Positions 69-21,265 of a DNA stretch of 43,799 bases are shown piece after piece. The number at the start of each line of letters is the position of its first letter. Position 1 is the stretch's first letter. The stretch comes from a virus (taxonomy: Duplodnaviria > Caudoviricetes). A program made the translations under genes and the position numbers. The DNA is taken from IMG/VR virus record IMGVR_UViG_3300048853_000016, positions 1 to 43,799 of that record; one strand, 5' to 3'. Below the pieces are notes generated by a model. It saw only the letters and a program-made list of their open reading frames with translations. It was not told where the DNA came from and did no database searches.

Positions 69-125
69 TGGTGCGGGTAGAGAGACTTGAACTCCCACGC
101 CTTGCGGCACCAGAACCTAAATCTG
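69..125 (-). pseudogene. 3' part of disrupted host tRNA-Leu(TAG)
   Basis: Minus strand CAGATTTAGGTTCTGGTGCCGCAAGGCGTGGGAGTTCAAGTCTCTCTACCCGCACCA; joins with 43674-43715 into a complete tRNA; upstream phage sequence supplies no D-arm or acceptor 5' strand. Confidence 0.93.
112..125. repeat. att core, left junction (AGAACCTAAATCTG)
   Basis: Exact 14-bp direct repeat with 43674-43687; covers the anticodon loop. Confidence 0.95.
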
Positions 126-160
126 ACTTCGGGGTTTTACTATTCCGGAAAACCCAACAA

Positions 161-173
161 AATCAAAGCCTTA
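161..173 (+). promoter_or_regulatory. IHF-type site in att arm
   Basis: AATCAAAGCCTTA matches WATCAANNNNTTR. Confidence 0.55.
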
Positions 174-202
174 CCACCCCTGCAAAGTACTATACTCCCC
201 AC

Positions 203-240
203 TGTGGCACGCGATTTTGGCACAATGTGCCATGTGTCAC
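203..240. repeat. Putative integrase arm-type sites (TGTGYCA cluster)
   Basis: Palindrome TGGCACA-A-TGTGCCA (218-232), TGTGTCAC (233-240) and TGGCAC (205-210) beside the att core. Confidence 0.45.
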
Positions 241-1259
241 GTGGGCATTTCGGTGCCCTGATACCCTGCAAGCTTGTTGATTGCAAGGCGCTTGCGCTCA
301 GCGGACGTGTGGGCATACCGCTGCGTCGTTTCGATGCGCTTGTGACCGAGCAGCTCCTGTGCCGTGCGAATGTCGGTGTGCAGGAGGATGTTCGTCGCGA
401 ACGTGTGACGCAGCACGTGAGGCACGTAGTTATGGTCGTCCGTCATGCCGAGGGCCGACTGCATCTTCCGCCAGTGCTCACGATACCACGCGGGCTTCTT
501 CTTAAAGAGCTTCGCGTCGGGATCATTGAGCGGCTTTGCCCTACGCTCCAGAACTTCCTTCGCCCTGGCCGTGAGCGGCACGTCGCGGTTCGGTCCCGCC
601 TTTGTGTCGTAGGTCCAGAGGTCAGCCATTCCGGCGTCACGCTTGGTGATCCTCAGCACTTCGCTCTGCCGGAAGCCGGTGTCGAGCGAAATGATGATGT
701 AGTCGCGCAGCTCATCCTCGGCGAACTCTTCGCACCACTTCAACATGGCCTCGATCTCGTCGTCCTCATAGAACCTGACGCGGGTCTCGCGCTCCTTGAT
801 CAGGCCCATGTCGAACAACTTGTCGAGTTTGCCAAGCTTGAACGCTTCCTTCGCCATGACAGAGAGCGTGGCAAGCTTGCGGTTGATCGTGGCATCCGAC
901 CGCTTCCAACCGGCGACCGTGGTCTTGATCGTCAGCGTGTCGGCATAGCAGAGCGACCGAACGTCCCGCATGGGGCCGAGGATGTCGACAACATGCTGAG
1001 AGTTGATGAGCGCTGTCTTTTCTCCCTTGGTGCCCTTCCAGCGCGTCTCAGCGACGAGATCGCGCAGCTCCTGCAGGGTCATCTTCTCCTCGACCTTCTT
1101 GGCCGTGGCATTGAGTTCGTACCTGCCCGAGAGAAGAGCGGCCTTGGTCTCAGCCTCCCATATCTCTGCATCCCGCCGGTTCGGGAAGTCCTTACGAAGC
1201 CTCTGTCCCTTGTAGGAAACAGAGGCTTGCCAAGATGTTCCTCGCTGTTTAATAGGCAT
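237..1259 (-). CDS. int: Tyrosine recombinase / phage integrase
   Basis: TGFRQSE (R), HVLRH (HxxR), LLGH..IETTQRY (H/Y); start MPIKQRG with AGAAGGAG RBS. Confidence 0.95.
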   Translation of the reverse strand: MPIKQRGTSWQASVSYKGQRLRKDFPNRRDAEIWEAETKAALLSGRYELNATAKKVEEKMTLQELRDLVAETRWKGTKGEKTALINSQHVVDILGPMRDVRSLCYADTLTIKTTVAGWKRSDATINRKLATLSVMAKEAFKLGKLDKLFDMGLIKERETRVRFYEDDEIEAMLKWCEEFAEDELRDYIIISLDTGFRQSEVLRITKRDAGMADLWTYDTKAGPNRDVPLTARAKEVLERRAKPLNDPDAKLFKKKPAWYREHWRKMQSALGMTDDHNYVPHVLRHTFATNILLHTDIRTAQELLGHKRIETTQRYAHTSAERKRLAINKLAGYQGTEMPT

Positions 1260-1274
1260 ACAGCTTCTCCTTCT

Positions 1275-1358
1275 GCCCAGTTGGTGAAACGGTAGACACA
1301 CGGGTTTTAGGTACCCGCGCCGAAAGGCATGGGGGTTCAAGTCCCTCACTGGGCACCA
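1275..1358 (+). tRNA. Phage-encoded tRNA-Leu, anticodon TAG (1308-1310)
   Basis: Acceptor GCCCAGT/ACTGGGC, D-loop GG, anticodon stem CGGGT/ACCCG with loop TTTAGGT, long variable arm, T-loop TTCAAGT, discriminator A, encoded CCA. Confidence 0.95.
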
Positions 1359-1369
1359 TTTTCCACGTG

Positions 1370-1531
1370 TTACTTTTTGGTGATTTCCGACCACTCAGGT
1401 GGCGGTTGGTTGGCCCCGGTTGTCAACCACAGGGCCATGTAGACGGCGGCCCCAGGTGGCCAGCCAGCTTGGACAAAGCGCTCCCTCCATGTTGCGGCGG
1501 ACAGGCCGAGAAAGAGCTTCTGCGTCTTCAT
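1370..1531 (-). CDS. Small hypothetical protein (53 aa, MKTQKLF...)
   Basis: TGATG overlap with the repressor stop codon. Confidence 0.4.
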   Translation of the reverse strand: MKTQKLFLGLSAATWRERFVQAGWPPGAAVYMALWLTTGANQPPPEWSEITKK

Positions 1532-1971
1532 CAGGCCCTCTTCGCCGCCGATTTTTCCGCAAGAGAACGCTGGTAAACGCCGTTCAGGTATTCCTTCGCG
1601 CTCGGGAAGCGGAAGTCCTCGACCACGGCGTTGGGGTCGATAGCTACGATGAGTTGGCGGGCGAGTTGCCTTCCCTTCGGGCTGAGGAACATGATCAGCC
1701 GACGCCCCTCGTTCGGATCGTTCGTGGCCTCGATAAGGCCATATCCCGGCTTTCCTAGGCGGTGCCACTCACCGAGCGCCGCGACGTTGCGCGAGCAAGA
1801 GGACTGCGACAGGCCCACCTCCTCCGCGAGCTGGGCCATTGTGATGCCCGGGCGAGCCATGACGACCAGAAAAACATGGGCCATCTGGATGGGCATCTGC
1901 TCGCCGCCTTTACGCAGCGTGCTGATCACCTGAAGGAGCTTCGAGAGGTTTGTGTTGAAAGGCATTGTCAT
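1531..1971 (-). CDS. MarR-family winged-helix regulator, probable prophage repressor
   Basis: PGITMAQLAEEVGLSQSSCSRNVAAL HTH and DPNEGRRLIMFLSPKG wing; next to integrase; start may be 1965. Confidence 0.85.
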   Translation of the reverse strand: MTMPFNTNLSKLLQVISTLRKGGEQMPIQMAHVFLVVMARPGITMAQLAEEVGLSQSSCSRNVAALGEWHRLGKPGYGLIEATNDPNEGRRLIMFLSPKGRQLARQLIVAIDPNAVVEDFRFPSAKEYLNGVYQRSLAEKSAAKRA

Positions 1972-2245
1972 TGTCCCCCGACCGGTAAATGTATTCTGCG
2001 TCATCAGATGTAGTCACAAGTGGTTTATAACGCCGATTGCGAAATACCTCAAGTGAGACCGTAACGTGAACATTCCCCAGCCACAGTTCGAGGTCTCTAG
2101 GGTGAAAACAGAGGTCTAAAAACCGTCTCCCGAACGTTGCAGCGGGATACTCGATGAACATGGAAATGGCAAGCAGGTCGAGGAAGACAGTTTTCATTTT
2201 TTGCAACCCCAGCAAACGTTTAGAGGGATAAATTTGGCAGGCCAT
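1910..2245 (-). CDS. Hypothetical protein upstream of repressor
   Basis: 111-aa ORF in phage orientation; start uncertain; overlaps the repressor 5' end. Confidence 0.35.
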   Translation of the reverse strand: MACQIYPSKRLLGLQKMKTVFLDLLAISMFIEYPAATFGRRFLDLCFHPRDLELWLGNVHVTVSLEVFRNRRYKPLVTTSDDAEYIYRSGDNDNAFQHKPLEAPSGDQHAA

Positions 2246-2308
2246 CCCCCCTTAGGCCTCACGCAGTACTAAAACAGGTTGTAAAAGTGACAACAAACCA
2301 ACCGGTTC

Positions 2309-2437
2309 TCAAGATCGGCCCTTTTTGGGTCGGCCTATCCTTGGTTTGGATATCACGCCATGTTGCAAGTGAGCAACATCCCGGTAGTGGATTTCAAATT
2401 TCAAGTCGTCTTCTTCACCTCCTTGGTTGTGAATCAT
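2309..2437 (-). CDS. Possible small basic protein (...KPRIGRPKKGRS)
   Basis: 42-aa ORF; internal AAGGAGGTG could serve a TTG start at 2404. Confidence 0.3.
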   Translation of the reverse strand: MIHNQGGEEDDLKFEIHYRDVAHLQHGVISKPRIGRPKKGRS

Positions 2438-2445
2438 GTGGATAA

Positions 2446-2511
2446 ATCCACGACCATCGAGGGCCGTGTTTGACCCTCTAGGTTTCGGCCTCCTGGCCTC
2501 TTCAGGTGGAT
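2446..2511 (-). ncRNA. Hammerhead ribozyme, type I
   Basis: Stem I AUCCAC/GUGGAU, core CUGAAGA, stem II GGCC-AGGA-GGCC, GAAA, stem III, GUC cleavage triplet at 2454-2452. Confidence 0.85.
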
Positions 2512-2672
2512 GCGATAGTGACTTTCCCGGCCCAGCCAGCGAGCAACCTTGCGACTGTCACAGCAGCGGCCTTTGTCGGATAGGTGTTCGGCAGCGGGTT
2601 GATCCATCGCGGCTGTAGGTGAGTGATCTGCCAAGCGCCCTTGGCCTTGCGGCTGACCTGATAGGTGCTCAT
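2502..2672 (-). CDS. Small early hypothetical protein (56 aa)
   Basis: GAGGA RBS and ATGA overlap with the upstream gene. Confidence 0.6.
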   Translation of the reverse strand: MSTYQVSRKAKGAWQITHLQPRWINPLPNTYPTKAAAVTVARLLAGWAGKVTIAST

Positions 2673-3037
2673 ACGCGGTCCTCGTTGCTGCACTGCATGA
2701 TGAAGTCTTCAAGCACGGCAGAGGCCTCGCGGGAGCGCTCGACGAGGGTCTCGCGGTCGCTGGATGGTGCACTCCCCGCGTCGAGAATGTCCCTAGCGTG
2801 GGCCATCGGAGCGAGAATGGCGTTCATGATCTGGAGCGCGGTGGCCTGATCAGTGAAATCGCCAATGGCCCTGACGTAAGACCCCGCGACCCCGTAGAGC
2901 GTCCAGAATGTCTCAAACTGGCGACCTTGTTCCTTCCAGTCATCACGGTCAGCCTCGAAGTCCTCATAGGTGCGATAGCTCACGCATGCCCCGTCGATCT
3001 CGATCACAGGACGAACTTCAAAGTACTGGAACTCCAT
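2669..3037 (-). CDS. Early hypothetical protein (122 aa)
   Basis: AAAGGA RBS before MEFQYFEV. Confidence 0.7.
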   Translation of the reverse strand: MEFQYFEVRPVIEIDGACVSYRTYEDFEADRDDWKEQGRQFETFWTLYGVAGSYVRAIGDFTDQATALQIMNAILAPMAHARDILDAGSAPSSDRETLVERSREASAVLEDFIMQCSNEDRV

Positions 3038-3054
3038 GTCTGTTCCTTTCGATT

Positions 3055-3120
3055 TGACAGCCATCATCAGGCGCGGGATGTCAGCCCGCACGACCGGCCC
3101 CTCCTGAGCCGGTTTCGGCA
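3055..3120 (-). ncRNA. Hammerhead ribozyme, type II with pseudoknot
   Basis: GCC-GAAA-CCGGCUC/GGGCCGG-UC, stem I GUGCGGG/CCCGCGC, CUGAUGA-U-GGC; loop UGACA pairs with 3' UGUCA; GUC at 3094-3092. Confidence 0.9.
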
Positions 3121-3125
3121 TTTGC

Positions 3126-3141
3126 TATGCACATGTGGATG
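3126..3141. promoter_or_regulatory. Operator-like 16-mer
   Basis: TATGCACATGTGGATG. Confidence 0.65.
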
Positions 3142-3196
3142 ATTGAGAGCGTGACTCGGCATTGCCCGCAGTCTGTCGCGCTGCTACTTGCCAAGT

Positions 3197-3610
3197 ATGG
3201 ACGCCAGATATGACATCGAGGGTGCGATTTTCATCCGTTTCGCGATGGTCGGTCGCCCCGTGCTCAACGGCCTCGCCGGGAAAGGGCAGCGACGAAAGCG
3301 TGATCCTCATTGCGCCACGCTATTCGCCCGCGACATCATCAATTCGATGCGGCGGGAAATCAGCTTCCGACAACAGGGTGAGACGGTGCAAGATGCTACC
3401 GTCGAGGAGTTCTTGGCCGGGGCTATCTGGGAAATCCCTATCGAGGATTTCGTGGTGCTTGTCGGCATCGACGCAACGCCGAGAGACGCGATGAAGCGGA
3501 GCATCTCAAAGCGGCTGGCCACGCGGCTAGAAGCGGAGTTCGAGCTCTTTTCCTCCCCTGCTTTCTACCACGGGCATAGCGGAACAGGTCCACTCGGCCC
3601 GAGGAAATAG
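3197..3610 (+). CDS. Hypothetical protein, counter-oriented moron
   Basis: 137-aa ORF filling the gap between two operator copies; TTGCCC-N17-TACTTG ends 6 nt before the ATG. Confidence 0.55.
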   Translation: MDARYDIEGAIFIRFAMVGRPVLNGLAGKGQRRKRDPHCATLFARDIINSMRREISFRQQGETVQDATVEEFLAGAIWEIPIEDFVVLVGIDATPRDAMKRSISKRLATRLEAEFELFSSPAFYHGHSGTGPLGPRK

Positions 3611-3618
3611 ACAGTTAC

Positions 3619-3634
3619 TATGCACATGTGGATA
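3619..3634. promoter_or_regulatory. Operator-like 16-mer
   Basis: TATGCACATGTGGATA. Confidence 0.7.
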
Positions 3635-3636
3635 AT

Positions 3637-4377
3637 TCAGCCCAACACAAAGCCCGAGCGGTCAGTCTTGGCCCTGCCCTTCGCATAAAGCCCAACGATC
3701 ACGCCCTTAGGGTCGAGGAAGCGCAGATCGGTTTCGTCACCGTCGATCACATCGCGGCAGGTTTCCCCGTACTGCGCCAGCTTGTCGACGAAATAGTCGC
3801 GAAGCTCCTTGGTCCGGTAGACGACAGCCATGTTAGCGCCGGTCTCTTTTGCAGCCGTGGTGACCGCATCGGCATAGGCCTTGTTCGCTTCCGAATAGGA
3901 CAGAACCAACGAGTAGTTGGTGGGAAGCTCACGATACACACGCTTGTAGATTTTCGTGTAATCGTAGAACTGCACCATCGGGAACGCTTCGAAGATCGAC
4001 TTGAAGCCATTCACAGGATGCGCGACCTCGAATTGAATGTCGCTGGTGCCGTTAAGTCGGACTGCAGGACGAACGCCCTTGCGCTCACAGTACCGAACGA
4101 ATGCAGCAATATCTGCAGCGAGATCGGTCATGAATGCAGTCCGATTGGCCAGATAACGCTTGGTCTTGTTGATGCGAGCGAGCTGGACGTTGTTGTAAGC
4201 GCCCCTGCCCGCAGTGTTCAGGCATCCTTGGACGCATCCAGCCGTTTCAGCCATCGGGCAGACGTTACCGCCAGCCAGATTGAACGGCGCGAGGTACATG
4301 ATGGCGGTCTCATACTCGCCATCACCTTTGACCGTCTTGGCATTGTTGCCGGAGCGGATGAGAGAACCTTTGAACAT
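3637..4377 (-). CDS. GP88-family phage protein (Cys cluster, radical-SAM-like)
   Basis: CPMAETAGCVQGC, VRLNGTSDI, FYDYTK and GDETDLRFLD motifs. Confidence 0.75.
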   Translation of the reverse strand: MFKGSLIRSGNNAKTVKGDGEYETAIMYLAPFNLAGGNVCPMAETAGCVQGCLNTAGRGAYNNVQLARINKTKRYLANRTAFMTDLAADIAAFVRYCERKGVRPAVRLNGTSDIQFEVAHPVNGFKSIFEAFPMVQFYDYTKIYKRVYRELPTNYSLVLSYSEANKAYADAVTTAAKETGANMAVVYRTKELRDYFVDKLAQYGETCRDVIDGDETDLRFLDPKGVIVGLYAKGRAKTDRSGFVLG

Positions 4378-4393
4378 GTCGAATGCCCTTTTC

Positions 4394-4409
4394 TATGCAC
4401 AGGTGGATA
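4394..4409. promoter_or_regulatory. Operator-like 16-mer
   Basis: TATGCACAGGTGGATA just upstream of the GP88 RBS. Confidence 0.7.
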
Positions 4410-4520
4410 GGACTAAGGACAGCTCGACTCGCGACAGCTGGTGATCCCAGCCCCCTGCCCTTAATGCTATCCACGTGGGATAGGCATGCGGATTACAAAG
4501 CCCTCCGCTGGTCTATTCGA

Positions 4521-4533
4521 TTGTCAAAGAACG
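4521..4533 (-). promoter_or_regulatory. boxA-like antitermination element of the early leader
   Basis: CGTTCTTTGACAA resembles rrn/lambda boxA (GCTCTTTAACA). Confidence 0.45.
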
Positions 4534-4588
4534 CAGCGCCTTCTTGCGTCGTTGCTGTTTGTGCATCCTTTGTGTCATATCGATTTGC

Positions 4589-4604
4589 TATGCACAAGTG
4601 GATA
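4589..4604. promoter_or_regulatory. Operator-like 16-mer at probable early host-RNAP promoter
   Basis: TATGCACAAGTGGATA upstream of the boxA-like element. Confidence 0.65.
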
Positions 4605-4671
4605 GTAACGAAAAACATCATCGATCTGCTAAGCGGTTGATTTTGATTCGATAAATTTTCCGCTGGCTGAA

Positions 4672-4860
4672 TCACCAATCGATTTGGTAGCCATGTATGG
4701 GAGCATCTACCGCACACCAATCACGTATGCGGGATATTGCGAAGCTCAGTTGATGCCCGCGATATAGCACCACCAAATCGTCTGCTTCGCGTCGCAAGGG
4801 CTGGGCAATGTAAGAGCGGAGTGCACCGCTCTCATCGACCACTTCAAAAACGAATCTCAT
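4672..4860 (-). CDS. Small hypothetical protein, possibly WYL-like
   Basis: 62-aa ORF; R..IAQP...LVVLY....SFAISRI pattern. Confidence 0.4.
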   Translation of the reverse strand: MRFVFEVVDESGALRSYIAQPLRREADDLVVLYRGHQLSFAISRIRDWCAVDAPIHGYQIDW

Positions 4861-5019
4861 AGCACTACCACTTAGAATTTAGGGGTATGTACGCGTGCGC
4901 TGCTTGAGCCAGCCTTGCGGCAATAGGGTGCCCCATTCAAGGGTGGCGTATTAACATAGCGAGGCGACCTCCGACCTCATCTAGCGCAATGCGGGGGCCT
5001 TTTAGTCGGTCGCTGAGGG

Positions 5020-5886
5020 CTACTCTTTCGGGAATGGCGGAGGGTCGAGCGGATAGACCAATCCCCTTGGCACATCGTCGGCCTTTTTTGGCGTGGGAAA
5101 TATGACAGGCCAAACCTGAAGAATTGCGGCCACCGCCAGTACGATCGTTAAGAGCACCATACTCCTTTGGATTCTTGTATTTTCGTTGTGCCGAGTGGTC
5201 TCTTGCTCTTCCTTGTCCAGAGTTGCGATCGCCTTAGGGGCCAGCCGGTATGCGATAGTGTTCTTACCCTGCACCAAATCGCCGGAGATCACTAGGGAGC
5301 TCAGCACGTAGCGATAATATGAGGAGAGATCATCTGCTTTCGGGTGAAGCGACCACCGGAGCCCGTACATAGCAGACATGATGCCAGTCGCCGAAGTCTC
5401 GTACTTGTGATCCTTGATTGTATTCTCCAGAATTATCTTAAGAACTGTGGTTCTGTCCTCTCGAGCAAAACTCCTCTTATTGTAAAAATACTGACATGTC
5501 TCGTTGATGTGGCGGTTAAAAAACGCATACTTGGTGTAATGACGTAATATAAACGAATGCGCAGGTAAGAAAAAGTAATCGTAGTCTTTATACCAGTGTC
5601 TAAACCTAAATGAATATTGATCAAAATACCTGAATGGAATGCTCGCTTCTGTGCCACCCCTTTTTTTCGATACTCCAACACCGGAGACGCCCTCCGGTTT
5701 CATCTCTCTCACGGCGAACATAGAGCCGGTCTTGTGTTCCAGGTAAGCGCCGTAATAGTCATTTTTTCTCGCCGCTTCTCCGGAGAGCGAGAATGGTCCC
5801 TTCGGCGGCGGCTTCTTTAACGCGATGCGTATTGCCCACTTCACTGCGGCCCGGCGAACCCAGCTTCTCACCAAACCATGACGCAT
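5020..5886 (-). CDS. AT-rich moron protein with wHTH-like region and C-terminal TM helix
   Basis: 288 aa; MVLLTIVLAVAAILQVWPVIF hydrophobic tail; visibly lower GC than core genes. Confidence 0.75.
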   Translation of the reverse strand: MRHGLVRSWVRRAAVKWAIRIALKKPPPKGPFSLSGEAARKNDYYGAYLEHKTGSMFAVREMKPEGVSGVGVSKKRGGTEASIPFRYFDQYSFRFRHWYKDYDYFFLPAHSFILRHYTKYAFFNRHINETCQYFYNKRSFAREDRTTVLKIILENTIKDHKYETSATGIMSAMYGLRWSLHPKADDLSSYYRYVLSSLVISGDLVQGKNTIAYRLAPKAIATLDKEEQETTRHNENTRIQRSMVLLTIVLAVAAILQVWPVIFPTPKKADDVPRGLVYPLDPPPFPKE

Positions 5887-6073
5887 AAGTACCCTCTACT
5901 GCGGTTGTGACTGCCACATATAACAACTCGAAAAAGCATTATCACCCCATGAAAGGCGAAGACCGAAACATAAACGAAATCACAATCGGTCCCGCGATCT
6001 TCGCGCTTTCATGTGGCCCACGCTAGATCAATCATCTGCTGCAGTGTAAAGGTAAATCAATCACTTAGACGGT

Positions 6074-6099
6074 CATGTGTCACGACCATGTGTCACGAC
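6074..6099. repeat. 13-bp tandem repeat CATGTGTCACGAC x2
   Basis: Exact copies at 6074-6086 and 6087-6099; CCATGTGTCACG also at 230-241. Confidence 0.85.
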
Positions 6100-6206
6100 T
6101 GGCACTGGAAGACCGACGAAAGCGTGAAATAGAGGGGGCACCGGGGGGAAGTCGCGGTTCTTCATATCTGATCTGTAGTCAGAAATTTTTGCAGCAAACA
6201 TTCCGG

Positions 6207-6410
6207 CTAGTGCGATGGGGGGTTCTGGTCGAGCAAGGCAAGAAGGTCTTTCCGGGTCAGGCGCCGATCCTGCATGAGGTCGAGTATCTTGAGGGCTGCG
6301 GCCTTGGCTTCCAGGCTGTTGGGACGACATCCGTGCCGAGAACACCAAGCCATCAGCACCGCCCGCATCACGAAAACGACATCCAAACGACCGTAACTTG
6401 GCTGAGCCAT
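6207..6410 (-). CDS. Small hypothetical protein (67 aa)
   Basis: AAGGGGAGG RBS before MAQPSYG. Confidence 0.55.
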   Translation of the reverse strand: MAQPSYGRLDVVFVMRAVLMAWCSRHGCRPNSLEAKAAALKILDLMQDRRLTRKDLLALLDQNPPSH

Positions 6411-6540
6411 AGCGTGCACCCTCCCCTTATAAACGGATAAATTGCGAGCATCAGCGGAAACAATCAAAGAAACGTTACTGGGCAACATTCCGCCCCTTCC
6501 GCGTTTACTCTTCCGGTGCACGAGGGCTGGGAGGTTCAGG

Positions 6541-6753
6541 ATGCCCAAGAAGAGCGAGCTTGAGATCGGTGACGAAGTGATCCTCCACGGGGAGATCGTC
6601 TGGATCGACGATGACTTCACCCCAAGGATACATGTCCAGGGCTGCGACTACCCCATCAGAGTCAGCGCATCGCTGGTGGAGGTGGTCGCAAAGGGGAAGA
6701 AGCCCAGGCACAGGATCAAGAAGCGGGAGGACTGGCTAGGACAGGGAGGTTAG
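6541..6753 (+). CDS. Small beta-barrel (KOW/SH3-like) hypothetical protein
   Basis: GGGAGG RBS; LEIGDEVILHGEIVWID pattern. Confidence 0.55.
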   Translation: MPKKSELEIGDEVILHGEIVWIDDDFTPRIHVQGCDYPIRVSASLVEVVAKGKKPRHRIKKREDWLGQGG

Positions 6754-6849
6754 GAACCCGTGAGCTAGGCCGATGACGATGATCGCGATGAAGATGTGCT
6801 TCTGATATTTGACGACGAACATGGTAGCCAGTGAGATGCTGATTGCCAT
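6736..6849 (-). CDS. Possible hydrophobic peptide (37 aa), positional analogue of T7 gp19.5
   Basis: MAISISLATMFVVKYQKHIFIAIIVIGLAHGFLTSLS downstream of the last phage promoter; no clear RBS. Confidence 0.3.
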   Translation of the reverse strand: MAISISLATMFVVKYQKHIFIAIIVIGLAHGFLTSLS

Positions 6850-6994
6850 TTAGGTTACCAAGAGGACACCGCTAGGTGGCCGATTGGTAACTATTGGTTT
6901 TACTCATCAATATCATTCTCATCAACAGCCTAAAGAGAAGTCGGAGGGGAGAGCGTATTCTCAGTTCCCCCCTCCTCCCCCTTTAGTCTCTCTC

Positions 6995-7011
6995 CATATA
7001 TCAGGGGTAAT
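6995..7011 (-). promoter_or_regulatory. Phage RNAP promoter after terL (phiOR-like)
   Basis: ATTACCCCTGATATATG, one of six near-identical copies. Confidence 0.85.
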
Positions 7012-7026
7012 CTCTGGTTGGTCTTC

Positions 7027-8721
7027 CTACCCGATGGAGAACCACCTCAGGTCGTTGCTGCCCTGGTCTCCCCCGATACCGAAGACGGTTTGGTGGAAGT
7101 TCTCCAGCTCTCGTCTCAGAAGCTCTGCCTTGTGGTCTTCCGCAGCCTTCTCGGTGTCTCGGGCCATCTGCTCGACCCAATAGCCGACAGCGATGGTCAG
7201 AGCGTCCAGACGGTCGTCGTGGACCAGAGCGCCCTTGTCGCGGGTGATGCGGGTAAGCTGGTAGAAGAGCTGGCGCTGCGGCTCAGATTCGAAGTCCTTC
7301 TTGAAAACCGAGGCGTCCACGATCAGGCGGTGCTGGTTCAGGACAGGTTCGAGCGTGTCGCAGATTCGGCGCTCCTTCTGGGTGGAGTGCTTGACCTCTT
7401 CGATGGTCACCGGATGGACGCGGGTGAAGACCGGCTTCAAGAGCTGCACGAACATGCCGTCGCCAAAGTTCGCCTCGACGATCACGCGGTTCACACCGTG
7501 CGTCTTGCCGAGCATGGCCAGCGATTTGAGGGTGTTCTCGGAGTAGCCCTCCCTGAAGCCACCGGAGGCGACGAGGAAGAGGTTGCCGTGCAGTATCTTG
7601 ACGATGGCATAAGCCGTCTCGTCCCCACCACGGCCCGAAGGGTCGATAGCCATGACACAGCCGGTGTACTCTGCCATTTCCCCTGCGACCCACATCGGGC
7701 GGTACAGCCGGTCGTTCTGAAGGCCCACGGTCGGGAGATCGGAGATCACCCTCTCGGGGTCGTTCGTCCAGACGATCTTGGCCGGTCCCATGCGGGGATC
7801 GAGGGTGGTGACCAGAAGGTCCGAGAGCTTGAGCGGGTATTTGTCTTGGTCGCTCAGCGAGGTATCGAGCATGAACTGCAAGGCGAAACCGGAGCGGCCA
7901 TAGGAGGCTTCGCGCTCGATCAGGTCCATCTCGCCGAAGCGAGCGGGATCGACGGGGTCTCGGGCCTTGGCACCATTGTCCATCAACCGGCCCACGTAAG
8001 GAGCCAGTCGGCCCTGGTAGCGCTCCGCATCGTTCGGGACGCGGGCGGGCCAGATTCGGATTTCGTAGCCGCGCTCGGGCAGTCGGTTATAGAGGCTCAT
8101 CTCGGTCTGGGGCGTGCCCAGGTAGATGATGCGGCTCGACGGCAGCGGCTTGAGGATAGCGTCGAACTCCTTCACGCGCTCGGAGAGCTGATCGCGCTGG
8201 AGTTGCGTCATGGAGTTATTCGGGACTTCCACGTCGTCGGCGATGATCACGTCTGCACGGGAACCGGCGAGCTGGCCGGTGATGCCGACCGATTTGACGG
8301 ATGGAGAGTGCGAGTTCGTGGCAGGACCAACGTCGAATGCGACCATCGAGTCACGCTGCCCTGGGCGGGGACGCAGATGAGCCAGGAGCGGCATCTCAGC
8401 GATCAAGCGCTTGGTAAACGAGGAGAACTGGTCGGCGCGGTCCTTGGACGCGGAGACGACGAGGATGTTGAGCTGCGGGTTGCAGTAGAGAAGCCAGACG
8501 ACGAAGGCCGAGGTGACGTAGGACTTGCCCACGCCTCGGAAGGCCTCGATCACGCAGCGCTTCGGGCCGTGCTGAAGGTACTGCGCAACGTCATACTGGA
8601 CGGGGGTCGGGTCGGGGAGATTCAGATGCTTCCAGACGACATAGAGGAAGTTCCTGAAATCCGCCTTGAGGGGGTCACTCGTTTGGAGATGAGTACCTGA
8701 ACGGAGTTGCTTGGTGGTCAT
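7027..8721 (-). CDS. terL: Terminase large subunit (T7 gp19-like)
   Basis: Walker A AFRGVGKS, IIADDVE, nuclease IDPSGRGGDE and HDDRLDAL. Confidence 0.96.
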   Translation of the reverse strand: MTTKQLRSGTHLQTSDPLKADFRNFLYVVWKHLNLPDPTPVQYDVAQYLQHGPKRCVIEAFRGVGKSYVTSAFVVWLLYCNPQLNILVVSASKDRADQFSSFTKRLIAEMPLLAHLRPRPGQRDSMVAFDVGPATNSHSPSVKSVGITGQLAGSRADVIIADDVEVPNNSMTQLQRDQLSERVKEFDAILKPLPSSRIIYLGTPQTEMSLYNRLPERGYEIRIWPARVPNDAERYQGRLAPYVGRLMDNGAKARDPVDPARFGEMDLIEREASYGRSGFALQFMLDTSLSDQDKYPLKLSDLLVTTLDPRMGPAKIVWTNDPERVISDLPTVGLQNDRLYRPMWVAGEMAEYTGCVMAIDPSGRGGDETAYAIVKILHGNLFLVASGGFREGYSENTLKSLAMLGKTHGVNRVIVEANFGDGMFVQLLKPVFTRVHPVTIEEVKHSTQKERRICDTLEPVLNQHRLIVDASVFKKDFESEPQRQLFYQLTRITRDKGALVHDDRLDALTIAVGYWVEQMARDTEKAAEDHKAELLRRELENFHQTVFGIGGDQGSNDLRWFSIG

Positions 8722-8722
8722 C

Positions 8723-8738
8723 TATCCACATATGCATA
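8723..8738. promoter_or_regulatory. Operator-like 16-mer over the terL RBS (inverted orientation)
   Basis: TATCCACATATGCATA. Confidence 0.6.
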
Positions 8739-8760
8739 GAAACGGCCATAGCGATTCATG

Positions 8761-8816
8761 GAGAGGCGTCAGATCTTCCGGCTAGGGTAGTACCAGCCAG
8801 GTCTCTGACGCCGCTC
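8761..8816. other. Long imperfect hairpin, possible RNase III site
   Basis: GGCGTCAGA...GGCT/AGCC...TCTGACGCC inverted repeat between terS and terL. Confidence 0.4.
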
Positions 8817-8847
8817 CTGAGTCAGTCCACACGCCGTTTTGACGGTT

Positions 8848-9075
8848 TTAATTGTAGAGGTTCGGCTCCTCTGCGGAGGTGAAGGGAAGCTCATCAGCCA
8901 GATTACCCAGCGGAGAGCCTTCCTTGGGGATTGCGTCGATGCCGTTATCCTTGAGGAACTGGCGAGCCACGTTCAGCTCTGCGGCAGTCACCTCACCACT
9001 ACGGACCTTTTCGAGCAGCACCTTCGCCATCTCGCCGTGGAGGAGCGAGAGGAGTTCATCAGTCTTGTTGCTCAT
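8848..9075 (-). CDS. terS: Terminase small subunit (T7 gp18-like)
   Basis: TAAELNVARQFLKDNGI motif; position before terL. Confidence 0.88.
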   Translation of the reverse strand: MSNKTDELLSLLHGEMAKVLLEKVRSGEVTAAELNVARQFLKDNGIDAIPKEGSPLGNLADELPFTSAEEPNLYN

Positions 9076-9326
9076 GGTTTGTAGCTCACATATGCGGTGA
9101 TAGCCGCGACAATGATCGCGAGCACCGCCATGATGTTGGTGAAGACGGACTGGTTGGTCGATTTCGACGACCGCATCGAGGCGATGTCCACCTCGACCTT
9201 CGATGTCCGTTGTTCGAGCGCGTCGATGCGCTGGCTCTGCGCGGAGGAGAGATTGATCAACGTATCAACCTTCCCCTCCAACCGGCCAAGCATCAGAAGC
9301 GTGTCCGATGCGTTGACCTGTTCCAT
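9072..9326 (-). CDS. Coiled-coil protein with C-terminal TM (holin/XhlA-like)
   Basis: LGRLEGKVD coiled coil and hydrophobic tail; at the T7 holin position. Confidence 0.6.
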   Translation of the reverse strand: MEQVNASDTLLMLGRLEGKVDTLINLSSAQSQRIDALEQRTSKVEVDIASMRSSKSTNQSVFTNIMAVLAIIVAAITAYVSYKP

Positions 9327-9718
9327 CAGAGACTAGCGCCCCAAAGCCAGAGATCATCGAGCTGCTCGGGCGGGATGCCGAGAGCAACCGCGAGGGACGC
9401 GATGTCAGGATGATCTCGCTCGAACGAGGTCGATTCCATCATCTCGATCTTCATCAGCTCTTTCTCGATGTCGGAGAGTGCGAGCGTGTCGATGGTGGCC
9501 GAGACGGATGTCTTGGTGATCCCGATGTTCGCTGCTGCCAGCCAGAACTGCCGGGAGGTCAGCGTCGGGAAGAATTTCGGGGGAGCGGTCCAGGCACCAT
9601 TCACCCACCTCTGAGAGGCGTGAAGGGGAGCGGACGGCACTTGAATGCCGCCCTCAGGTTCGGTCCCCATGAAGGTGCCGAGAAACCTGCCCTCCCCGTC
9701 TACGAAGAACTTTTCCAT
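9326..9718 (-). CDS. Tail-fibre-associated (chaperone-like) protein
   Basis: Directly follows the tail fibre; FERDHP...LGIPPEQLDDLW tail. Confidence 0.65.
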   Translation of the reverse strand: MEKFFVDGEGRFLGTFMGTEPEGGIQVPSAPLHASQRWVNGAWTAPPKFFPTLTSRQFWLAAANIGITKTSVSATIDTLALSDIEKELMKIEMMESTSFERDHPDIASLAVALGIPPEQLDDLWLWGASL

Positions 9719-11206
9719 TTACTTTCTCACCTTGATCTTCATGCGCCAGTTCGCCAACGTCGCGTAGAGGGCGTTACCGGTGTCCTGATTGAGGATGGCG
9801 GGGAACAGGTAGTTGCCGCTGTTCCCGTTCTGGACGCGGACGTAGACGTTCGTCGCATCGGCCCAGGCGATGTAACCAACCCACCGATCGGCATAGGTCG
9901 GGTAGTTGCTAAGCGGGCCAATCTCGTCATTCACCGCGTAGCCGTGCTCGGCGACCTTGCAGATCATGTACAGGTCGATCATCGACGGCTTGACGCCGAG
10001 GCCGTGCGCCCAGGTGATCAGACCAGCGAGCGTCGGCGTGAACTCGCCAGAGACGTTGGTCTCGACCTTGTCAGCCGTCATGATCGGGCCGAGGGTCGCA
10101 GCTACCTGCGCGAGCGTGGACGGGCGCATGTAGTTGTCCGTTCCGGTGTTCACCTGCGTCACGATGTAGCCGATGTTGCTATTCGTCGTATCGTATTCCG
10201 AGCGGAACAGGCGGGCGTTGATGTCGCCGTTGCTATCTCGCTGAGCGATGGTGTTGCCGGTAGACGCTGTCGCGGGGGCCGCTCCACGAAGGGTATCGCC
10301 GTCCAGCCCCGAGCCGTTGCCGTCAACAGTTTTGAGCTTCGTGAGCACGTCAGAGGCTGTGTAGGCAGAGGCATCGAGCTTCGCGCTGACGGTGGTCTTC
10401 GTGGCGAACGTCGCGTCGATCTGGGTCTTCGAATAGGTCTCCGTCTTTGTGTAGTAGCTCGACGGGTCGAACAAGGCAGCGTCCTGGGCGGACTGGGCAG
10501 CAGCCGCAGCAGAGGCCGCAGCATCCGCAGCCGAGTTCGCCGCGTTGGTCGCGGAGGTGGCCGCAGCGTTCTTCGACGAGAGTGCCGAGCTTGCAGAGTT
10601 GGCCGCGTTGGTTGCGGACGTAGCTGCTTCCGAGGCCTTCGTGGTTGCCGTGCTGGCTGAGTTCGCCGCATTCGTTGCCGAGGTCGCCGCTGCGTTCTTC
10701 GACGACAGAGCGTTGGACGCGGATGCCGAGGCCTCGTTCGCCTTCTGCGTGGCGATGTTCAGCTGCGAGGTCATACCGGTCTCGGCCCACCGCTTGTTCA
10801 CCGCATCCATGTCATTGACGGGATCAAGGATGTTCGAGATGCGCCGATTCAGCGCCGAGAAAGAGCCATCATCGGTTACGCCGAGCGAGGCTTCACCCAG
10901 ATCGAACGCTTCCTGGGCGAGGTAGAAGACCTGAATGGCCGACAGATCGAGATCGCTCTCAACCAGCGTGGAGCCATCAAGGAAGTCCACCAGAAGTTTA
11001 TCGCGAGGGGTCACACGCCGAACATCGACGATGCTGCCAGAGGGAGGCGCAGTCGTGAGCTTGACCTGGGTCGCGGAGTTCCAAGTGAACGCGACGAGGT
11101 TACCGTTCACCTTCACCTGAACGTGGTCTTTGTGGAGATATGGGAACGTCACGTTGAAGACGGTCGTGGTCCCGTTTCCAGGGTACTGTGCATACGCCAG
11201 AGCCAT
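9719..11206 (-). CDS. Tail fibre protein (T7 gp17-like N-terminal adaptor)
   Basis: GNGTTTVFNVTFPYL...RRVTP...LVDFLDGSTL adaptor and Ala/Ser/Thr/Asn stalk. Confidence 0.92.
   Translation of the reverse strand: MALAYAQYPGNGTTTVFNVTFPYLHKDHVQVKVNGNLVAFTWNSATQVKLTTAPPSGSIVDVRRVTPRDKLLVDFLDGSTLVESDLDLSAIQVFYLAQEAFDLGEASLGVTDDGSFSALNRRISNILDPVNDMDAVNKRWAETGMTSQLNIATQKANEASASASNALSSKNAAATSATNAANSASTATTKASEAATSATNAANSASSALSSKNAAATSATNAANSAADAAASAAAAAQSAQDAALFDPSSYYTKTETYSKTQIDATFATKTTVSAKLDASAYTASDVLTKLKTVDGNGSGLDGDTLRGAAPATASTGNTIAQRDSNGDINARLFRSEYDTTNSNIGYIVTQVNTGTDNYMRPSTLAQVAATLGPIMTADKVETNVSGEFTPTLAGLITWAHGLGVKPSMIDLYMICKVAEHGYAVNDEIGPLSNYPTYADRWVGYIAWADATNVYVRVQNGNSGNYLFPAILNQDTGNALYATLANWRMKIKVRK
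10496..10745 (-). repeat. Coding repeats in tail fibre stalk
   Basis: ALSSKNAAATSATNAANSA twice, AATSATNAANSA three times; bounds approximate. Confidence 0.8.
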
Positions 11207-11224
11207 GAAGTCTCTCTTTCATGT

Positions 11225-11263
11225 AAAAAAGAGACCCCCGGAAAGTACATTTCCGAGGGCCTC
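11225..11263 (-). terminator. Intrinsic terminator before the tail fibre gene
   Basis: GAGGCCCTCGGAAA...TTTCCGGGGGTCTC followed by T6. Confidence 0.8.
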
Positions 11264-11266
11264 GAG

Positions 11267-11282
11267 TATTCACAGGTGGATA
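11267..11282. promoter_or_regulatory. Operator-like 16-mer
   Basis: TATTCACAGGTGGATA between the gp16 stop and the terminator. Confidence 0.6.
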
Positions 11283-11285
11283 GGA

Positions 11286-14200
11286 TTAGTCACGCATCTC
11301 CCTTCTCGGGAGGCCTTGCGTGGCCCAGTTGAAGAACCACTGGAGGGGTAGCAGCCGCTGGAACGGTATGATGTCCATTGCGGCCTTCGCGTCGGGCCGG
11401 GAGTAGTCGTCACCAAATGCGCCCGTAATCGCGCCCGAGGTGGCCTTCGCGGCTTTGTCGAGCAGATCGAACGTTGGGTTGGCGAAGAGCACACCCGTCA
11501 GGCCGCTGGAGCGGTAATCGAGCGCGGTCTCGCCAGTCGTTAAGTAGGCCCCGGTGTCGAGCAACATCGGCAGCAGGGAGCTTTCCGACGAGCGCATGAT
11601 GCCCGCGATGCCGAGATTCTTCCACGATAGCCGCTCCTTGATCTTACGATCCCGGTCGGGGTCACCGACGAGCTGCATGTGCGTCTGGCCCCAGTAGACC
11701 AGAGCGCCTGTGATCGAGGCCAGCGTGACCTGAATACCCGCAGCCCAGTCCCGCTGGTTGATTCCCTGCAGGAGGCCGCGCGTCCAGGCACCGACCGCGA
11801 ACGAGCGGAACTGCAACAGCACCTTGCCGACAGGGCTGTTCATCCACTTGGCGAACTGGCCGACATCGTTCTCAAGGATCATATTGCGCACTGAACGGTT
11901 GAATGCGTCGGTGTAGGCCTTGCGGGCATCGGTCGGCCAATCGGCCACATTGAGCTTCGTCACCCGCTTGCCGTCAAAGACCGCGTGGTCGTTGTAGGCC
12001 TTCTTGATCAGGGCGATCTTCTCGTCGGTCAGGCCGAGCAGCTTCATCCGGTTCGGCGTCAGACGACCGGCCTTGGTACCCTTAGCGATCTGCCCGAACT
12101 TCTGAGCGAAGGCGCGAGCAGCCCACCGCTGGAGAGCGGTATTGATCGGGGCCATGCCCGACCCCAAAGCCACCGCTCGGTTGGCCGCATGGAGCCTCGG
12201 CTCGAGCCAGTCCATCGCCTTGCCGAGAGGCGTGGCGCTTCCGCTGGCGAGTGCCTGGGGAATACCGAAGGCGTCGGTCGGGATGTACGCGGCACCGATG
12301 TGGAAGTCACTTCCCGGCGCAACGAGATCGTCGATGTCATCCTGCAGCTCATCAACGAACTTCCCGCTCCGTGCCATGTTGATCAGGCGACGGAACTCAG
12401 GAAGTGCCATGTATGCGGTCTTGAAGCCCATCTGCGAGGGGATGCGAACCGCCTCCGGTATCTGTGAGAAGCCAACCTGCCCCATCAGGCGGGTGAAGTT
12501 GAAGTCGCGCAGGAGACGCATGAAACGCCCGAGATTGTTGTTCTCGTCCCAACGCGGGATGCCCATGATGGCGTCGTAGGCGAACCTGAGGTTCTTCTCG
12601 TCAGCGGCCGTATCGAGCCGTTTGTTGCCCCGCTTGCCCTCCTCCGAGGCCACGCCCTTCATCTTCTCGATCAGCACGTCCATGTCGGCGGAAGAGCGGA
12701 TGCCGTCCACCAGCAATTTGTCGGGATTGGTCGGGTCAGGAATCTTCACGCCCGCGAGCGCGATCTGACCGGACATGTTCCGGTTATAGAGGTGCATCAG
12801 CAGGTTGGCGTTGTTGACGTAGAAATCGGCGATCTTCACCTCGCGCACGGTCGTGCCCCACTCGTCGGAGAGGGTCATGGAGAAGTTCTCGTCCATGAGG
12901 ACGCGGTGCTTCAGCCTGGAGCTGCCACCCGCTTCCTTGTCGGACTGGGACTTGGTGCCCTTCAGGTTCTCGATGATTTCGTCAACCTCGGCCTCCGACA
13001 TCATGCTGCCACCGTCGAAGCGGGCATCGAGCAGCAGCTTGCGGAAATCGTCGAGGTCTTCGCCAGCCAGCGCACGGGACGCGCCAAGCTCCTGGCCGTG
13101 GCCAAGCTTGTACATCCGGTCGGCGATGGCATGGCCCATCTTCTCGGCGAGCTCGGGCTTGATGTTGGGCTGGTTCTTCTTGATCGCTTCGATGAACAGC
13201 CGGGAGACGCCGACATATTCGCCAGCGGAGTTCTTGCCGTAGCCAAAAGTGTTGATAAGGTCGATTGCGGCCTCGCGGTTGGTGATGCGCGGGACATAGT
13301 TCTCGACGCCCATCTCGGTGCGAGTGATGCCCAGGTCGCTTGCCTGTTTCCACCAGTCGCTCATCAAGGTGTTGAACTGAGCGCCCGCAGCCTGGACCTC
13401 CTTCGGGAACGCTTGCTTCGCCGCCAGGGTGTCAGCCCGCTGCCACGCGGTGATCATATCGGAAAACTTGTTCTGTTCCTCGACCGCGTTCCAGACGCTG
13501 ATCTTGTTGGCCTTACGGTAGGCCTGCCACTGCGCGTTGAAGGTCTTCGCCCAGGCATAGTTGGCTGACCGCTGGAGACGACGCTGGATTTCGGAGGCAG
13601 CGATCACGCTCGCTCGGTCCTTCAGGGCGTTACCGGCTGCGTCCTCGACGAGGTACTTTCCGATGCCACGGGTGAACGGGTTGGCGGACTTACCGAACTG
13701 TGCGGCGAGATCGAAGCGAACCTTGCCCCAGAACGTCTCGTACTCCTTGTCGAGTTCCTTCCAGGCCGCATGCTGGGCGGCTGCGTCCGACCGATACATC
13801 GGCTCGACGTAGTTGGTCTGGGCGGCGCCGACTGACTTAACACCGTAGATGGCCTTGGCTTCCTGCGTCATGGCGTGACCGACGTTCTCGATCACCTCGT
13901 TCTCCTCGGCGAGCGCCCGCGTCGGGTTGCGGTAGCCGTTGAAGATGCCACCCATGACGATGCCGGTCCCGATGGAATACATCAGGTCAGCCTTGGTCTT
14001 GGTCGGGTCAACGGCGTGAAGGGCACTGTCCACGGCCACGTTACCGGCTGCACCCTCCAGCGCACCGAGGGCGATCTTACCGACTCGCCCGAACCGAGCC
14101 GCCAGAGCTGCCGGGGCACCGAGGCCTCCGGTCGCCGCAGAGATGGCTGCGGTCGCCGCCCAGGCACCGGGGTCGGTCATGGCAGCAGCGATCTGCAGGG

Positions 14201-15143
14201 CAACGCCGGTACCTCCCATCTTGGTGAGCTTATCGTTCACCTCAAGCTGCCGCAGGATGCGGGCACGGATGGCATCGGCGTGTTCAGCGGAGACGGCATC
14301 CTCGAACTCCGAAAGAAGCTCGGTCGGGATGCCCTCCCCGACACGCTTGATCTCTGCTTCGTCCATGAAATAGGTCGTGTCGGGCGTGAAGTTGCCCAGC
14401 GCGCGCATCGGGGCGAGGATCGACCACTCGTTCTGGAGCGCGAGCTTGGCCCCTTCGATGATGCCGGGAGCATCCTCCTCGGCCTCCTCTTCAGCCTTCG
14501 TCTGCTCGATGCGCTCCGTCACGCTGTCGATGCTGCGATTAGTGTCCACCTCACTGAGCGTCACCGCTGTCTTGGTCGGGTCGATTCCGTCGTGGGCACG
14601 AAAGGAACTCGCCATATCGACCGAGCCAGTCACCTCACCCCCCGAATAGAGCTTCGGGGTGACCGAGGTATCGCCGAGTTTCTGCGCCCAGAGCTGCGCG
14701 AAGTCGCCAGCCGTGATGGTCATCGCCTCGCCTTTCCGGTCTGCCGGGAGATTGAGGGCGATAGCCTCGCTGCCGACGATCTGGTGCGCCGGGGTGTTGG
14801 GGTTCTTCAGGAACCTCAGAGCACCGCCCGCGCCCTGCTGGTGCGCCATGTAGATCTCACCGGCGGTCGGCTCACGACCAAGTCCACGGCGAAGGATGGT
14901 GCGGTTATCGCGGATGAGACGAACGCCAGCGTCAGCAGCGGCCTCGACATCGAACGGCGAGCGTCCGTTGCCGTACTGGCCCCAGGTCGAGGACAGGAAC
15001 TGGAACAGGCCCGAAGCGCTGGAATTGGGGTTTTTGGCGTTTGGATCGAGCTTGCTCTCCAGGTAGGCAATTCGGATGGCCGTATCGGGGTCTTCGCCGT
15101 AACGTCTCGCGGCGTTGGTGATGATAGCCTGGATGTCGGCCAT
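11286..15143 (-). CDS. Internal virion protein (gp16-like) with N-terminal lytic transglycosylase
   Basis: IAYLES...SASGLFQF..STW SLT motifs; 1285 aa; synteny. Confidence 0.9.
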   Translation of the reverse strand: MADIQAIITNAARRYGEDPDTAIRIAYLESKLDPNAKNPNSSASGLFQFLSSTWGQYGNGRSPFDVEAAADAGVRLIRDNRTILRRGLGREPTAGEIYMAHQQGAGGALRFLKNPNTPAHQIVGSEAIALNLPADRKGEAMTITAGDFAQLWAQKLGDTSVTPKLYSGGEVTGSVDMASSFRAHDGIDPTKTAVTLSEVDTNRSIDSVTERIEQTKAEEEAEEDAPGIIEGAKLALQNEWSILAPMRALGNFTPDTTYFMDEAEIKRVGEGIPTELLSEFEDAVSAEHADAIRARILRQLEVNDKLTKMGGTGVALQIAAAMTDPGAWAATAAISAATGGLGAPAALAARFGRVGKIALGALEGAAGNVAVDSALHAVDPTKTKADLMYSIGTGIVMGGIFNGYRNPTRALAEENEVIENVGHAMTQEAKAIYGVKSVGAAQTNYVEPMYRSDAAAQHAAWKELDKEYETFWGKVRFDLAAQFGKSANPFTRGIGKYLVEDAAGNALKDRASVIAASEIQRRLQRSANYAWAKTFNAQWQAYRKANKISVWNAVEEQNKFSDMITAWQRADTLAAKQAFPKEVQAAGAQFNTLMSDWWKQASDLGITRTEMGVENYVPRITNREAAIDLINTFGYGKNSAGEYVGVSRLFIEAIKKNQPNIKPELAEKMGHAIADRMYKLGHGQELGASRALAGEDLDDFRKLLLDARFDGGSMMSEAEVDEIIENLKGTKSQSDKEAGGSSRLKHRVLMDENFSMTLSDEWGTTVREVKIADFYVNNANLLMHLYNRNMSGQIALAGVKIPDPTNPDKLLVDGIRSSADMDVLIEKMKGVASEEGKRGNKRLDTAADEKNLRFAYDAIMGIPRWDENNNLGRFMRLLRDFNFTRLMGQVGFSQIPEAVRIPSQMGFKTAYMALPEFRRLINMARSGKFVDELQDDIDDLVAPGSDFHIGAAYIPTDAFGIPQALASGSATPLGKAMDWLEPRLHAANRAVALGSGMAPINTALQRWAARAFAQKFGQIAKGTKAGRLTPNRMKLLGLTDEKIALIKKAYNDHAVFDGKRVTKLNVADWPTDARKAYTDAFNRSVRNMILENDVGQFAKWMNSPVGKVLLQFRSFAVGAWTRGLLQGINQRDWAAGIQVTLASITGALVYWGQTHMQLVGDPDRDRKIKERLSWKNLGIAGIMRSSESSLLPMLLDTGAYLTTGETALDYRSSGLTGVLFANPTFDLLDKAAKATSGAITGAFGDDYSRPDAKAAMDIIPFQRLLPLQWFFNWATQGLPRREMRD

Positions 15144-15152
15144 TCACGTCTC

Positions 15153-17207: not shown

Positions 17208-17210
17208 AGA

Positions 17211-21175: not shown

Positions 21176-21194
21176 CGATCACCTCGGAAAGCTG

Positions 21195-21230
21195 AAAAAA
21201 AAGGGGAGACCCCATTATGGAGCCTCCCCT
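21195..21230 (-). terminator. Tphi-like terminator after capsid gene
   Basis: AGGGGAGGCTCC-ATAAT-GGGGTCTCCCCT followed by a T-tract. Confidence 0.88.
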
Positions 21231-21247
21231 GTTGGATGGTGGATTAT

Positions 21248-21263: not shown

Positions 21264-21265
21264 GA

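Follow-up and report, generated by a model that had tools for sequence, protein, structure and literature searches.

The window, i.e. the whole stretch of 43,799 nucleotides analysed here, contains a T7-like prophage inserted into a host tRNA-Leu(TAG) gene, together with a complete tRNA-Leu(TAG) gene carried by the prophage itself. The following features were identified:

69..125, minus strand: 3′ part of the host tRNA-Leu(TAG), located at the right junction (attR when read in tRNA orientation) and including the 14-bp core (comparison of both ends)
112..125, minus strand: 14-bp common core, with the anticodon loop, the probable crossover region, in its central 7 nt (121-115) (end comparison)
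126..43673, minus strand: T7-like prophage body with RNA polymerase, primase/helicase, DNA polymerase, capsid, tail and terminase genes (family profiles)
161..173, plus strand: IHF-binding consensus match within the attP arm, of presumed function (sequence)
204..240, no strand assigned: short repeats that closely follow int and have similar counterparts in relatives; predicted arm-type sites of the integrase (comparison with relatives)
237..1259, minus strand: open frame for a tyrosine integrase (int) of 340 aa (PHROG 1, E 2.5e-47; PF00589)
1227..1255, plus strand: predicted sigma-70-type promoter of the phage tRNA (TTGCCA, 17 nt, TAATAG), antisense in int codons 2-11 (conservation)
1275..1358, plus strand: phage tRNA-Leu(TAG), complete and with its CCA encoded, in antisense orientation between the int and regulator genes (ARAGORN, Rfam, compensatory changes in relatives)
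1531..1965, minus strand: MarR-type winged-helix regulator, predicted repressor (family profile matches)
40934..43447, minus strand: gene for the T7-like RNA polymerase, the first one beyond attL; approximate start (PHROG 414)
43523..43546, no strand assigned: second set of predicted arm-type repeats (repeat comparison)
43674..43715, minus strand: 5′ part of the host tRNA-Leu(TAG) at attL, with the core at 43674-43687 and the loop at 43683-43677

A host tRNA-Leu(TAG) gene split by a T7-like prophage

On the minus strand, the 5′ part of the host gene (43715-43674) and its 3′ part (125-69) share the 14-bp core CAGATTTAGGTTCT, which occurs at 43674-43687 and 112-125 and has no further copy in the window. 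No longer match exists between both ends, the next best being 8 bp, which confirms the preliminary description of a split host tRNA with nothing but a 14-bp core in common. Rejoined at the core, the pieces form an 85-nt tRNA-Leu(TAG) that is called by ARAGORN, and the 3′ part (69..125) matches the corresponding part of the Rhizobium tRNA at 100% in most of 173 genomes. The 43,562 bp that separate the two cores hold a T7-like set of genes.

At the default threshold of ARAGORN, no tRNA was called in attL, attR or attP. Once the threshold was lowered to 92% or less, attR was reported as a “possible pseudogene”, a weak cloverleaf without the GG of the D-loop. Shuffling the 60 phage bases that precede the core gave such a call at the relaxed threshold in 94 of 500 cases, so this call is at chance level and a rebuilt or decayed tRNA at attR was rejected. 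The earlier statement that no junction rebuilds a cloverleaf therefore holds: the prophage splits the host gene and neither junction restores it. The restoring design, in which attP supplies the missing tRNA half, was not found in the window. In two distant relatives, a 5′ half of tRNA-Leu that stops close to the anticodon arm comes after the integrase gene, at attP (L005 after 3984, TAG; L025 after 1317, CAG); these halves are the restoring design within the same integrase group.

The empty site exists as real DNA. Contigs of four sequencing runs were compared with positions 1-2600, X1 being the possible source run, and in contigs of X1, X3 and X7 the 3′ half runs straight into the 5′ half seen in the window. 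The loose ends of run X2 at 1-2600 differ from these empty-site ends. Prophage contigs cross the junctions by 30 letters (X1, X3 and X7 at attR, X1 and X4 at attL) and were not counted as bridges under the applied rule of 31 letters. An excised circle, visible as an attP-type loose end, was not present among the matches listed for contigs of X1, X2, X3, X4 and X7, five of 16 listed runs, and contigs drop rare forms.

In the integrase, R197, K220, H281, R284, H306 and Y315, which we take to be the catalytic residues, are invariant across five aligned homologues. A MarR gene is annotated at the same place as the window regulator in RHEph01, RHEph21 and LUZ100. A 22-nt repeat precedes minus-strand genes six times (6992, 26773, 38125, 40793, 40855 and 43496), and these repeats are likely promoters of the phage RNA polymerase. 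Near-palindromic repeats around CCACATGTGGA (3121, 3614, 4584, 21245, 31120, 40911 and 43568), two of them near predicted phage promoters, could be operators to which the MarR-type regulator binds. A weak match to the Rfam sucC motif at 2013-2068 (+), a short way upstream of the regulator gene, with 25.7 bits (cut-off 50, E 0.011), is probably due to chance.

The phage tRNA-Leu(TAG) and its predicted promoter

The gene at 1275-1358 (+) is the sole tRNA called in the window. ARAGORN identifies it as a complete Leu(TAG) and it scores 51.1 bits with Rfam RF00005 (cut-off 29), in agreement with the preliminary description. The changed anticodon stem was likewise verified by comparison, CGGGT/ACCCG in the phage tRNA versus CCAGA/TCTGG in the host tRNA. 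The claim that the phage tRNA lacks the att core is correct for the 14-bp core as a whole, but the central seven nucleotides of the core, the anticodon loop TTTAGGT, are retained.

All seven close loci first examined carry a tRNA-Leu(TAG) just upstream of int, and two distant loci carry none. In an alignment of ten copies with six distinct sequences, a small and related sample, 142 of 144 cells are paired (98.6%) and two-sided changes occur in 10 of 24 pairs, including four of the five pairs of the anticodon stem. None of 500 shuffles scored as high, although relatedness by itself can lift sequences above shuffles in such a comparison. Variation is greatest in the anticodon stem, which takes three different forms, each fully paired, while the phage tRNA is otherwise conserved, and the loop TTTAGGT is kept in every aligned copy. 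The compensatory changes indicate that the phage tRNA is under selection. Its anticodon tracks the attP loop: TAG in the clade of the window and in Lo5R7ANS, TAA with a matching attP loop in LUZ100 and at the loci L040/L041/L044 and L032/L043/L045, which include marine and freshwater-type contigs. No tRNA was called near int in L068, Pasto, BB8 and RsoP1EGY, where such an att loop is missing near int. One of these, L068 (2300-3800), is T7-like with a 51%-identical integrase and the same order int-attP-RNAP, and has neither the tRNA nor a TTTAGGT core. CUA accounts for 16 of 649 Leu codons over 12 large phage genes and does not occur in int; due to this rarity, codon compensation was rejected as the main role of the phage tRNA.

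The motif TTGCCA-17-TAAnnG lies antisense in int codons 2-11 at 13 of 13 tRNA-bearing loci, which represent perhaps four independent lineages and were set against one tRNA-less control, L068. The motif needs CAA as the Gln codon, whereas elsewhere in those int genes only 18 of the 127 Gln codons are CAA; in L068 the Gln codon is CAG and both promoter boxes are absent. Gene starts tend to be A/T-rich. Because of this tendency and the small number of about four lineages, and because a strict sigma-70 consensus scan of 1-2600 found no promoter and LUZ100 lacks the motif at the corresponding int position, the phage tRNA promoter inside the first codons of the integrase gene is put forward here as a prediction.

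Likely dependence of the lysogen on the phage tRNA and relation to known systems

The preliminary description had proposed a search for a second host Leu-TAG, and we carried it out on related lysogens. In G001, G002 and G003, draft assemblies in which all Rfam tRNA matches were listed and every long one was typed, the prophage copy is the only intact Leu-TAG (3/3); the other Leu genes have the anticodons CAG, GAG, CAA and TAA. By pattern search, the prophage copy is also the sole intact Leu-TAG in G485 and in G496, the latter with an unrelated integrase. In G496, which belongs to Rhizobium, tRNA-Leu(TAG) is split and an entire replacement gene immediately precedes attR (L179/L174); the integrase beside this replacement is only 26% identical to that of the window. 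The intact Leu-TAG pattern is single in 171 of 173 Rhizobium genomes, the genus of G002 (twice in G444, none in G523), and Leu-TAG is single-copy in 23 of 23 genomes of the genus nearest by tRNA flank. Across 301 genomes of the family, where the unpublished genome G083 counts among those with a single copy, it was found once in 256, twice in three and without a match in 42. A second pattern in G663 is not a tRNA; the second patterns in G406 and G328 are intact copies with no such integrase within 1.5 kb and are unrelated. The host tRNA of the window matches the Rhizobium tRNA and its flank is 80-87% like that of one other genus (23 genomes); the flank has no match in the 173 Rhizobium genomes and no near-identical match among 173, 23 and 81 genomes (overlapping sets). 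An integrase search across 401 family genomes gave G002 plus one weak match without a tRNA nearby.

According to standard wobble rules, CUA requires an anticodon with U34 and cannot be read by CAG or GAG anticodons. As Leu-TAG is single-copy in 171 of 173 Rhizobium genomes and U34 is needed for CUA, it is likely that the lysogen relies on the phage tRNA to decode CUA; the earlier inference of such a dependence is thus upheld as likely. It is very probable, in our judgement, that the T7-like prophage sits in the anticodon loop of tRNA-Leu(TAG), leaves the gene split and not rebuilt, and brings with its own Leu(TAG) what is likely the only CUA reader of the cell. The lambda-type tyrosine integrase would bind arm sites on both sides of attP, and strands would be exchanged across the 7-nt loop, with the stem arms of attB acting as loosely read core sites. 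Host RNA polymerase would transcribe the phage tRNA from the promoter antisense in the first codons of int; since this predicted promoter is one for the host enzyme, the tRNA could still be made under repression of the T7-like RNA polymerase. Through excision the host tRNA gene would become whole again, so that a clean exit of the prophage would be possible, and only a partial prophage loss that takes out the tRNA would be lethal.

The phage tRNA might instead serve mainly in lytic growth, by supplying codons or by replacing host tRNA cut by nucleases, with the dependence of the lysogen as a by-product. RHEph01 retains the tRNA though it formed no lysogens in the laboratory, the anti-nuclease idea for phage tRNAs is already in print (PMC10264068), and no helix varies more than the anticodon stem. 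Against such a role stand the rarity of CUA in the phage, the identity of the phage tRNA loop with that of the host, the fact that the anticodon follows the att target across lineages, and the missing tRNA call in the four phages or loci named above without the att loop near int. We consider a mainly lytic role unlikely. Still less credit, close to none, is given to the view that the phage tRNA is a functionless relic of imprecise excision and that a further gene copy, or a tRNA-like transcript made at attR, meets the need of the host. Such a reading was given for the LUZ100 tRNA in PMC10134795; full tRNAs abutting attP in Lo5R7ANS, L043 and G496 suggest an origin by capture from the junction, and attR does give a weak cloverleaf at relaxed thresholds. 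However, this cloverleaf is at chance level and misses the D-loop GG, the phage tRNA has undergone compensatory changes, and no other Leu-TAG exists in the three fully typed lysogens. We favor the reading that the phage copy replaces the split host gene in the lysogen.

The further proposal that this dependence protects the int/tRNA/repressor end from deletion found no support. The prophages of the four close lysogens G001, G002, G003 and G485 are about full length (~41-44 kb, with the polymerase gene beside attL), and the sole remnant, in G444, lacks int while the host tRNA is intact. A remnant with a split host gene and a kept int/tRNA end was not found among the lysogens examined, and Ford et al. 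2021 (PMC8631192) report no degraded prophage copies in 192 other strains. The G444 remnant (L181, 5056-8825) is a 3.8-kb Paadamvirus-like piece with the tRNA, the MarR gene and the early region, cut at the int start and located 0.5 kb upstream of the intact host tRNA-Leu(TAG). Its tRNA has one base deleted and one acceptor pair lost; as the host gene is intact there, this decay fits, in this one case, a copy that matters only when the host gene is split. The G001 prophage encodes a second tRNA, Asn(GTT), in its middle part (L102, 7239-7312).

The preliminary description knew of no such case in T7-like phages. This has to be corrected, since the arrangement is described in Ford et al. 2021 (PMC8631192), Zhao et al. 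2018 (bioRxiv 10.1101/410191) and PMC11476347, and the window prophage is a further example of what is already published for close relatives. According to Ford et al., each of their prophages is bounded on either side by a 12-bp motif, CAGATTTAGGTT, that belongs to tRNA-Leu. The motif is missing from the tRNA-Leu of the phage, for which they propose two roles, “presumably replacing function” and the prevention of “super-integration”; vTRX32-1 is inducible in R. leguminosarum. In common with vTRX32-1-like phages and RHEph01 (Paadamvirus and kin), the window prophage has CAGATTTAGGTT at both ends inside tRNA-Leu, a T7-like genome (42-45 kb in these phages, 43,562 bp in the window) with one phage tRNA-Leu without the motif, the order regulator-tRNA-int-attP-RNAP, and an integrase that is 75-76% identical to those of RHEph01, vTRX32-1 and RHEph21. 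In contrast, its RNA polymerase is only 57-58% identical to the Paadamvirus enzymes of the same three phages, its phage tRNA has the stem CGGGT/ACCCG versus CTTGG/CCAAG in theirs, and its host flank is unmatched in the 173 Rhizobium genomes and comes nearest, at 83-87%, to that of another genus. Paadamvirus is delimited by more than ~70% whole-genome similarity to RHEph01 (Supplementary Figure 1 legend, PMC8631192); judged on int (76%) and RNAP (57%), membership of the window prophage in this genus is doubtful.

Tests of tRNA-dependent lysogeny in mycobacteriophages, and the term itself, are found in Guerrero-Bustamante and Hatfull 2024 (PMC10865867). The window shares with these actinobacteriophages (Fionnbharth and others) the tyrosine integrase, an attB in a host tRNA that is not rebuilt, a short core (8-17 bp in theirs, 14 bp in the window) and a phage tRNA of the same isotype, here Leu(TAG). 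Whereas their cases are deletion-tested and mostly concern tRNA-Lys(TTT), the window prophage is T7-like, known from sequence alone and uses Leu(TAG), with its tRNA antisense directly upstream of int. For T7-like pelagiphages, Zhao et al. state that tRNA-Leu(TAG), Leu(TAA) or Cys is split and that a phage tRNA is “likely used instead”. HTVC025P, HTVC119P, HTVC200P and HTVC019P resemble the window prophage in splitting the host tRNA without complementation, HTVC119P and HTVC200P also in the tRNA upstream of int, but they infect SAR11 hosts and their integrases are ~28% identical to that of the window. Lo5R7ANS-like prophages of Sinorhizobium meliloti AK21 and RU11/001 split a single-copy tRNA-Leu(UAG) and carry a replacement, which the authors tie to tRNA-dependent lysogeny (PMC11476347); the same arrangement is given for S. 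meliloti in PMC12429752. Lo5R7ANS is a member of the Autographiviridae, but its tRNA abuts attP on the same strand and its integrase is 31% identical. Pseudomonas phage LUZ100 has the same order of MarR gene, antisense tRNA-Leu, int and RNAP, whereas the anticodon is TAA with a matching CTTAAAA loop after int (L142, 3075-3420); a LUZ100-related prophage is joined to a tRNA 3′ half at that loop (L151, 2575-2720). This loop is likely the attP of LUZ100, a term absent from the text of PMC10134795, where the tRNA is read as an excision relic.

An experimental test of dependence in a T7-like phage was not found in the literature examined, nor were deletion or expression data for the clade of the window. 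What remains of interest beyond the published cases is the probable dependence in T7-like phages, the doubt on self-avoidance, the predicted embedded promoter and a nested case. Integration vectors derived from these phages would need the tRNA included.

Crossover, self-targeting and nested integration

Classes of crossover in the anticodon loop are known for tRNA-targeting integrases. The Agrobacterium lysogen G001, whose integrase is 74% identical to that of the window, sets the crossover minimum at 7 bp: its attL and attR share only TTTAGGT, the 7-nt loop (L010 and L018), and give an intact tRNA when rejoined. The G001 integrase entered a host stem of the type TTGGT/ACCAA, although the attP of this phage is similar to the CCAGA type. 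In G001, attB has 13 contiguous bp in common with the phage tRNA and only 7 with attP. The genus of G001 is polymorphic for the anticodon stem, with TTGGT in 25 and CCAGA in 23 of 48 genomes.

These junctions bear on the proposal, made in the preliminary description and in Ford et al. 2021, that the changed anticodon stem exists to stop the phage integrase from targeting the phage tRNA, which we regard as possible but somewhat doubtful. In four of four lysogens the phage tRNA matches the phage's own attP at 1-2 of 10 stem positions, while attB does so at 5-8; the occurrence of three fully paired stems in a phage tRNA that is conserved in its other parts would agree with this purpose, and no self-integration was seen in the loci examined. 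On the other hand, the phage tRNA keeps the 7-nt crossover loop, and the G001 integrase used an attB that has 13 bp in common with the phage tRNA and 7 bp with attP. The stem seems to be read loosely, because both stem types are native in the genus of G001. The common phage stem CTTGG/CCAAG is also normal for single-copy tRNAs across much of the family, so it may simply have come with the donor tRNA. In G624, moreover, another element integrated into a phage replacement tRNA, though not by the phage's own integrase; as G624 is one metagenome contig and the integrase is that of the other element, it does not refute self-avoidance. Thus, of the claim that the changed stem prevents self-targeting, the difference from the phage's own attP stands, whereas the kept loop, the G001 crossover on the loop alone and the split in G624 speak against prevention. 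The different stem may lower self-integration, and the published anti-super-integration idea now faces natural counter-evidence.

In G624 (L164, 4566-17066), a 12.5-kb element split the tRNA-Leu(TAA) of a LUZ100-like prophage, a Pseudomonas T7-like one, at the 7-nt loop. The element encodes its own integrase and a complete tRNA-Leu(TAA) ~100 bp inside, which makes a third copy, as well as an NYN-domain gene, and most of its ORFs are without a family. Integrases that are 98% and 89% identical to that of the element sit in a different, presumably chromosomal, tRNA-Leu(TAA). G624 is the one case of such a nested chain of tRNA replacement, and integration into a phage tRNA had no match in a narrow literature search, which is weak evidence of being unreported.

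We speculate, holding it less likely than not, that the replacement tRNA is a portable attachment site and no shielded copy; integrases of the anticodon loop would require hardly more than the 7-nt loop in a paired stem, and a landing pad for further elements would lead to nested dependence, with the tRNA promoter embedded in int. Each incoming element would bring its own replacement tRNA, and chains of tRNA dependence would result. Loss of int would silence the essential tRNA, given a promoter antisense in the first codons of int, and transcription of the tRNA could dampen int. If the tRNA promoter truly overlaps int, maintenance of the integrase would be tied to the survival of the host. At a further locus (L166, 1-5600), the 3′ half of a tRNA-Leu(TAA) is followed by a satellite-like island with integrase, ATPase-like and capsid-like ORFs, as judged by eye.
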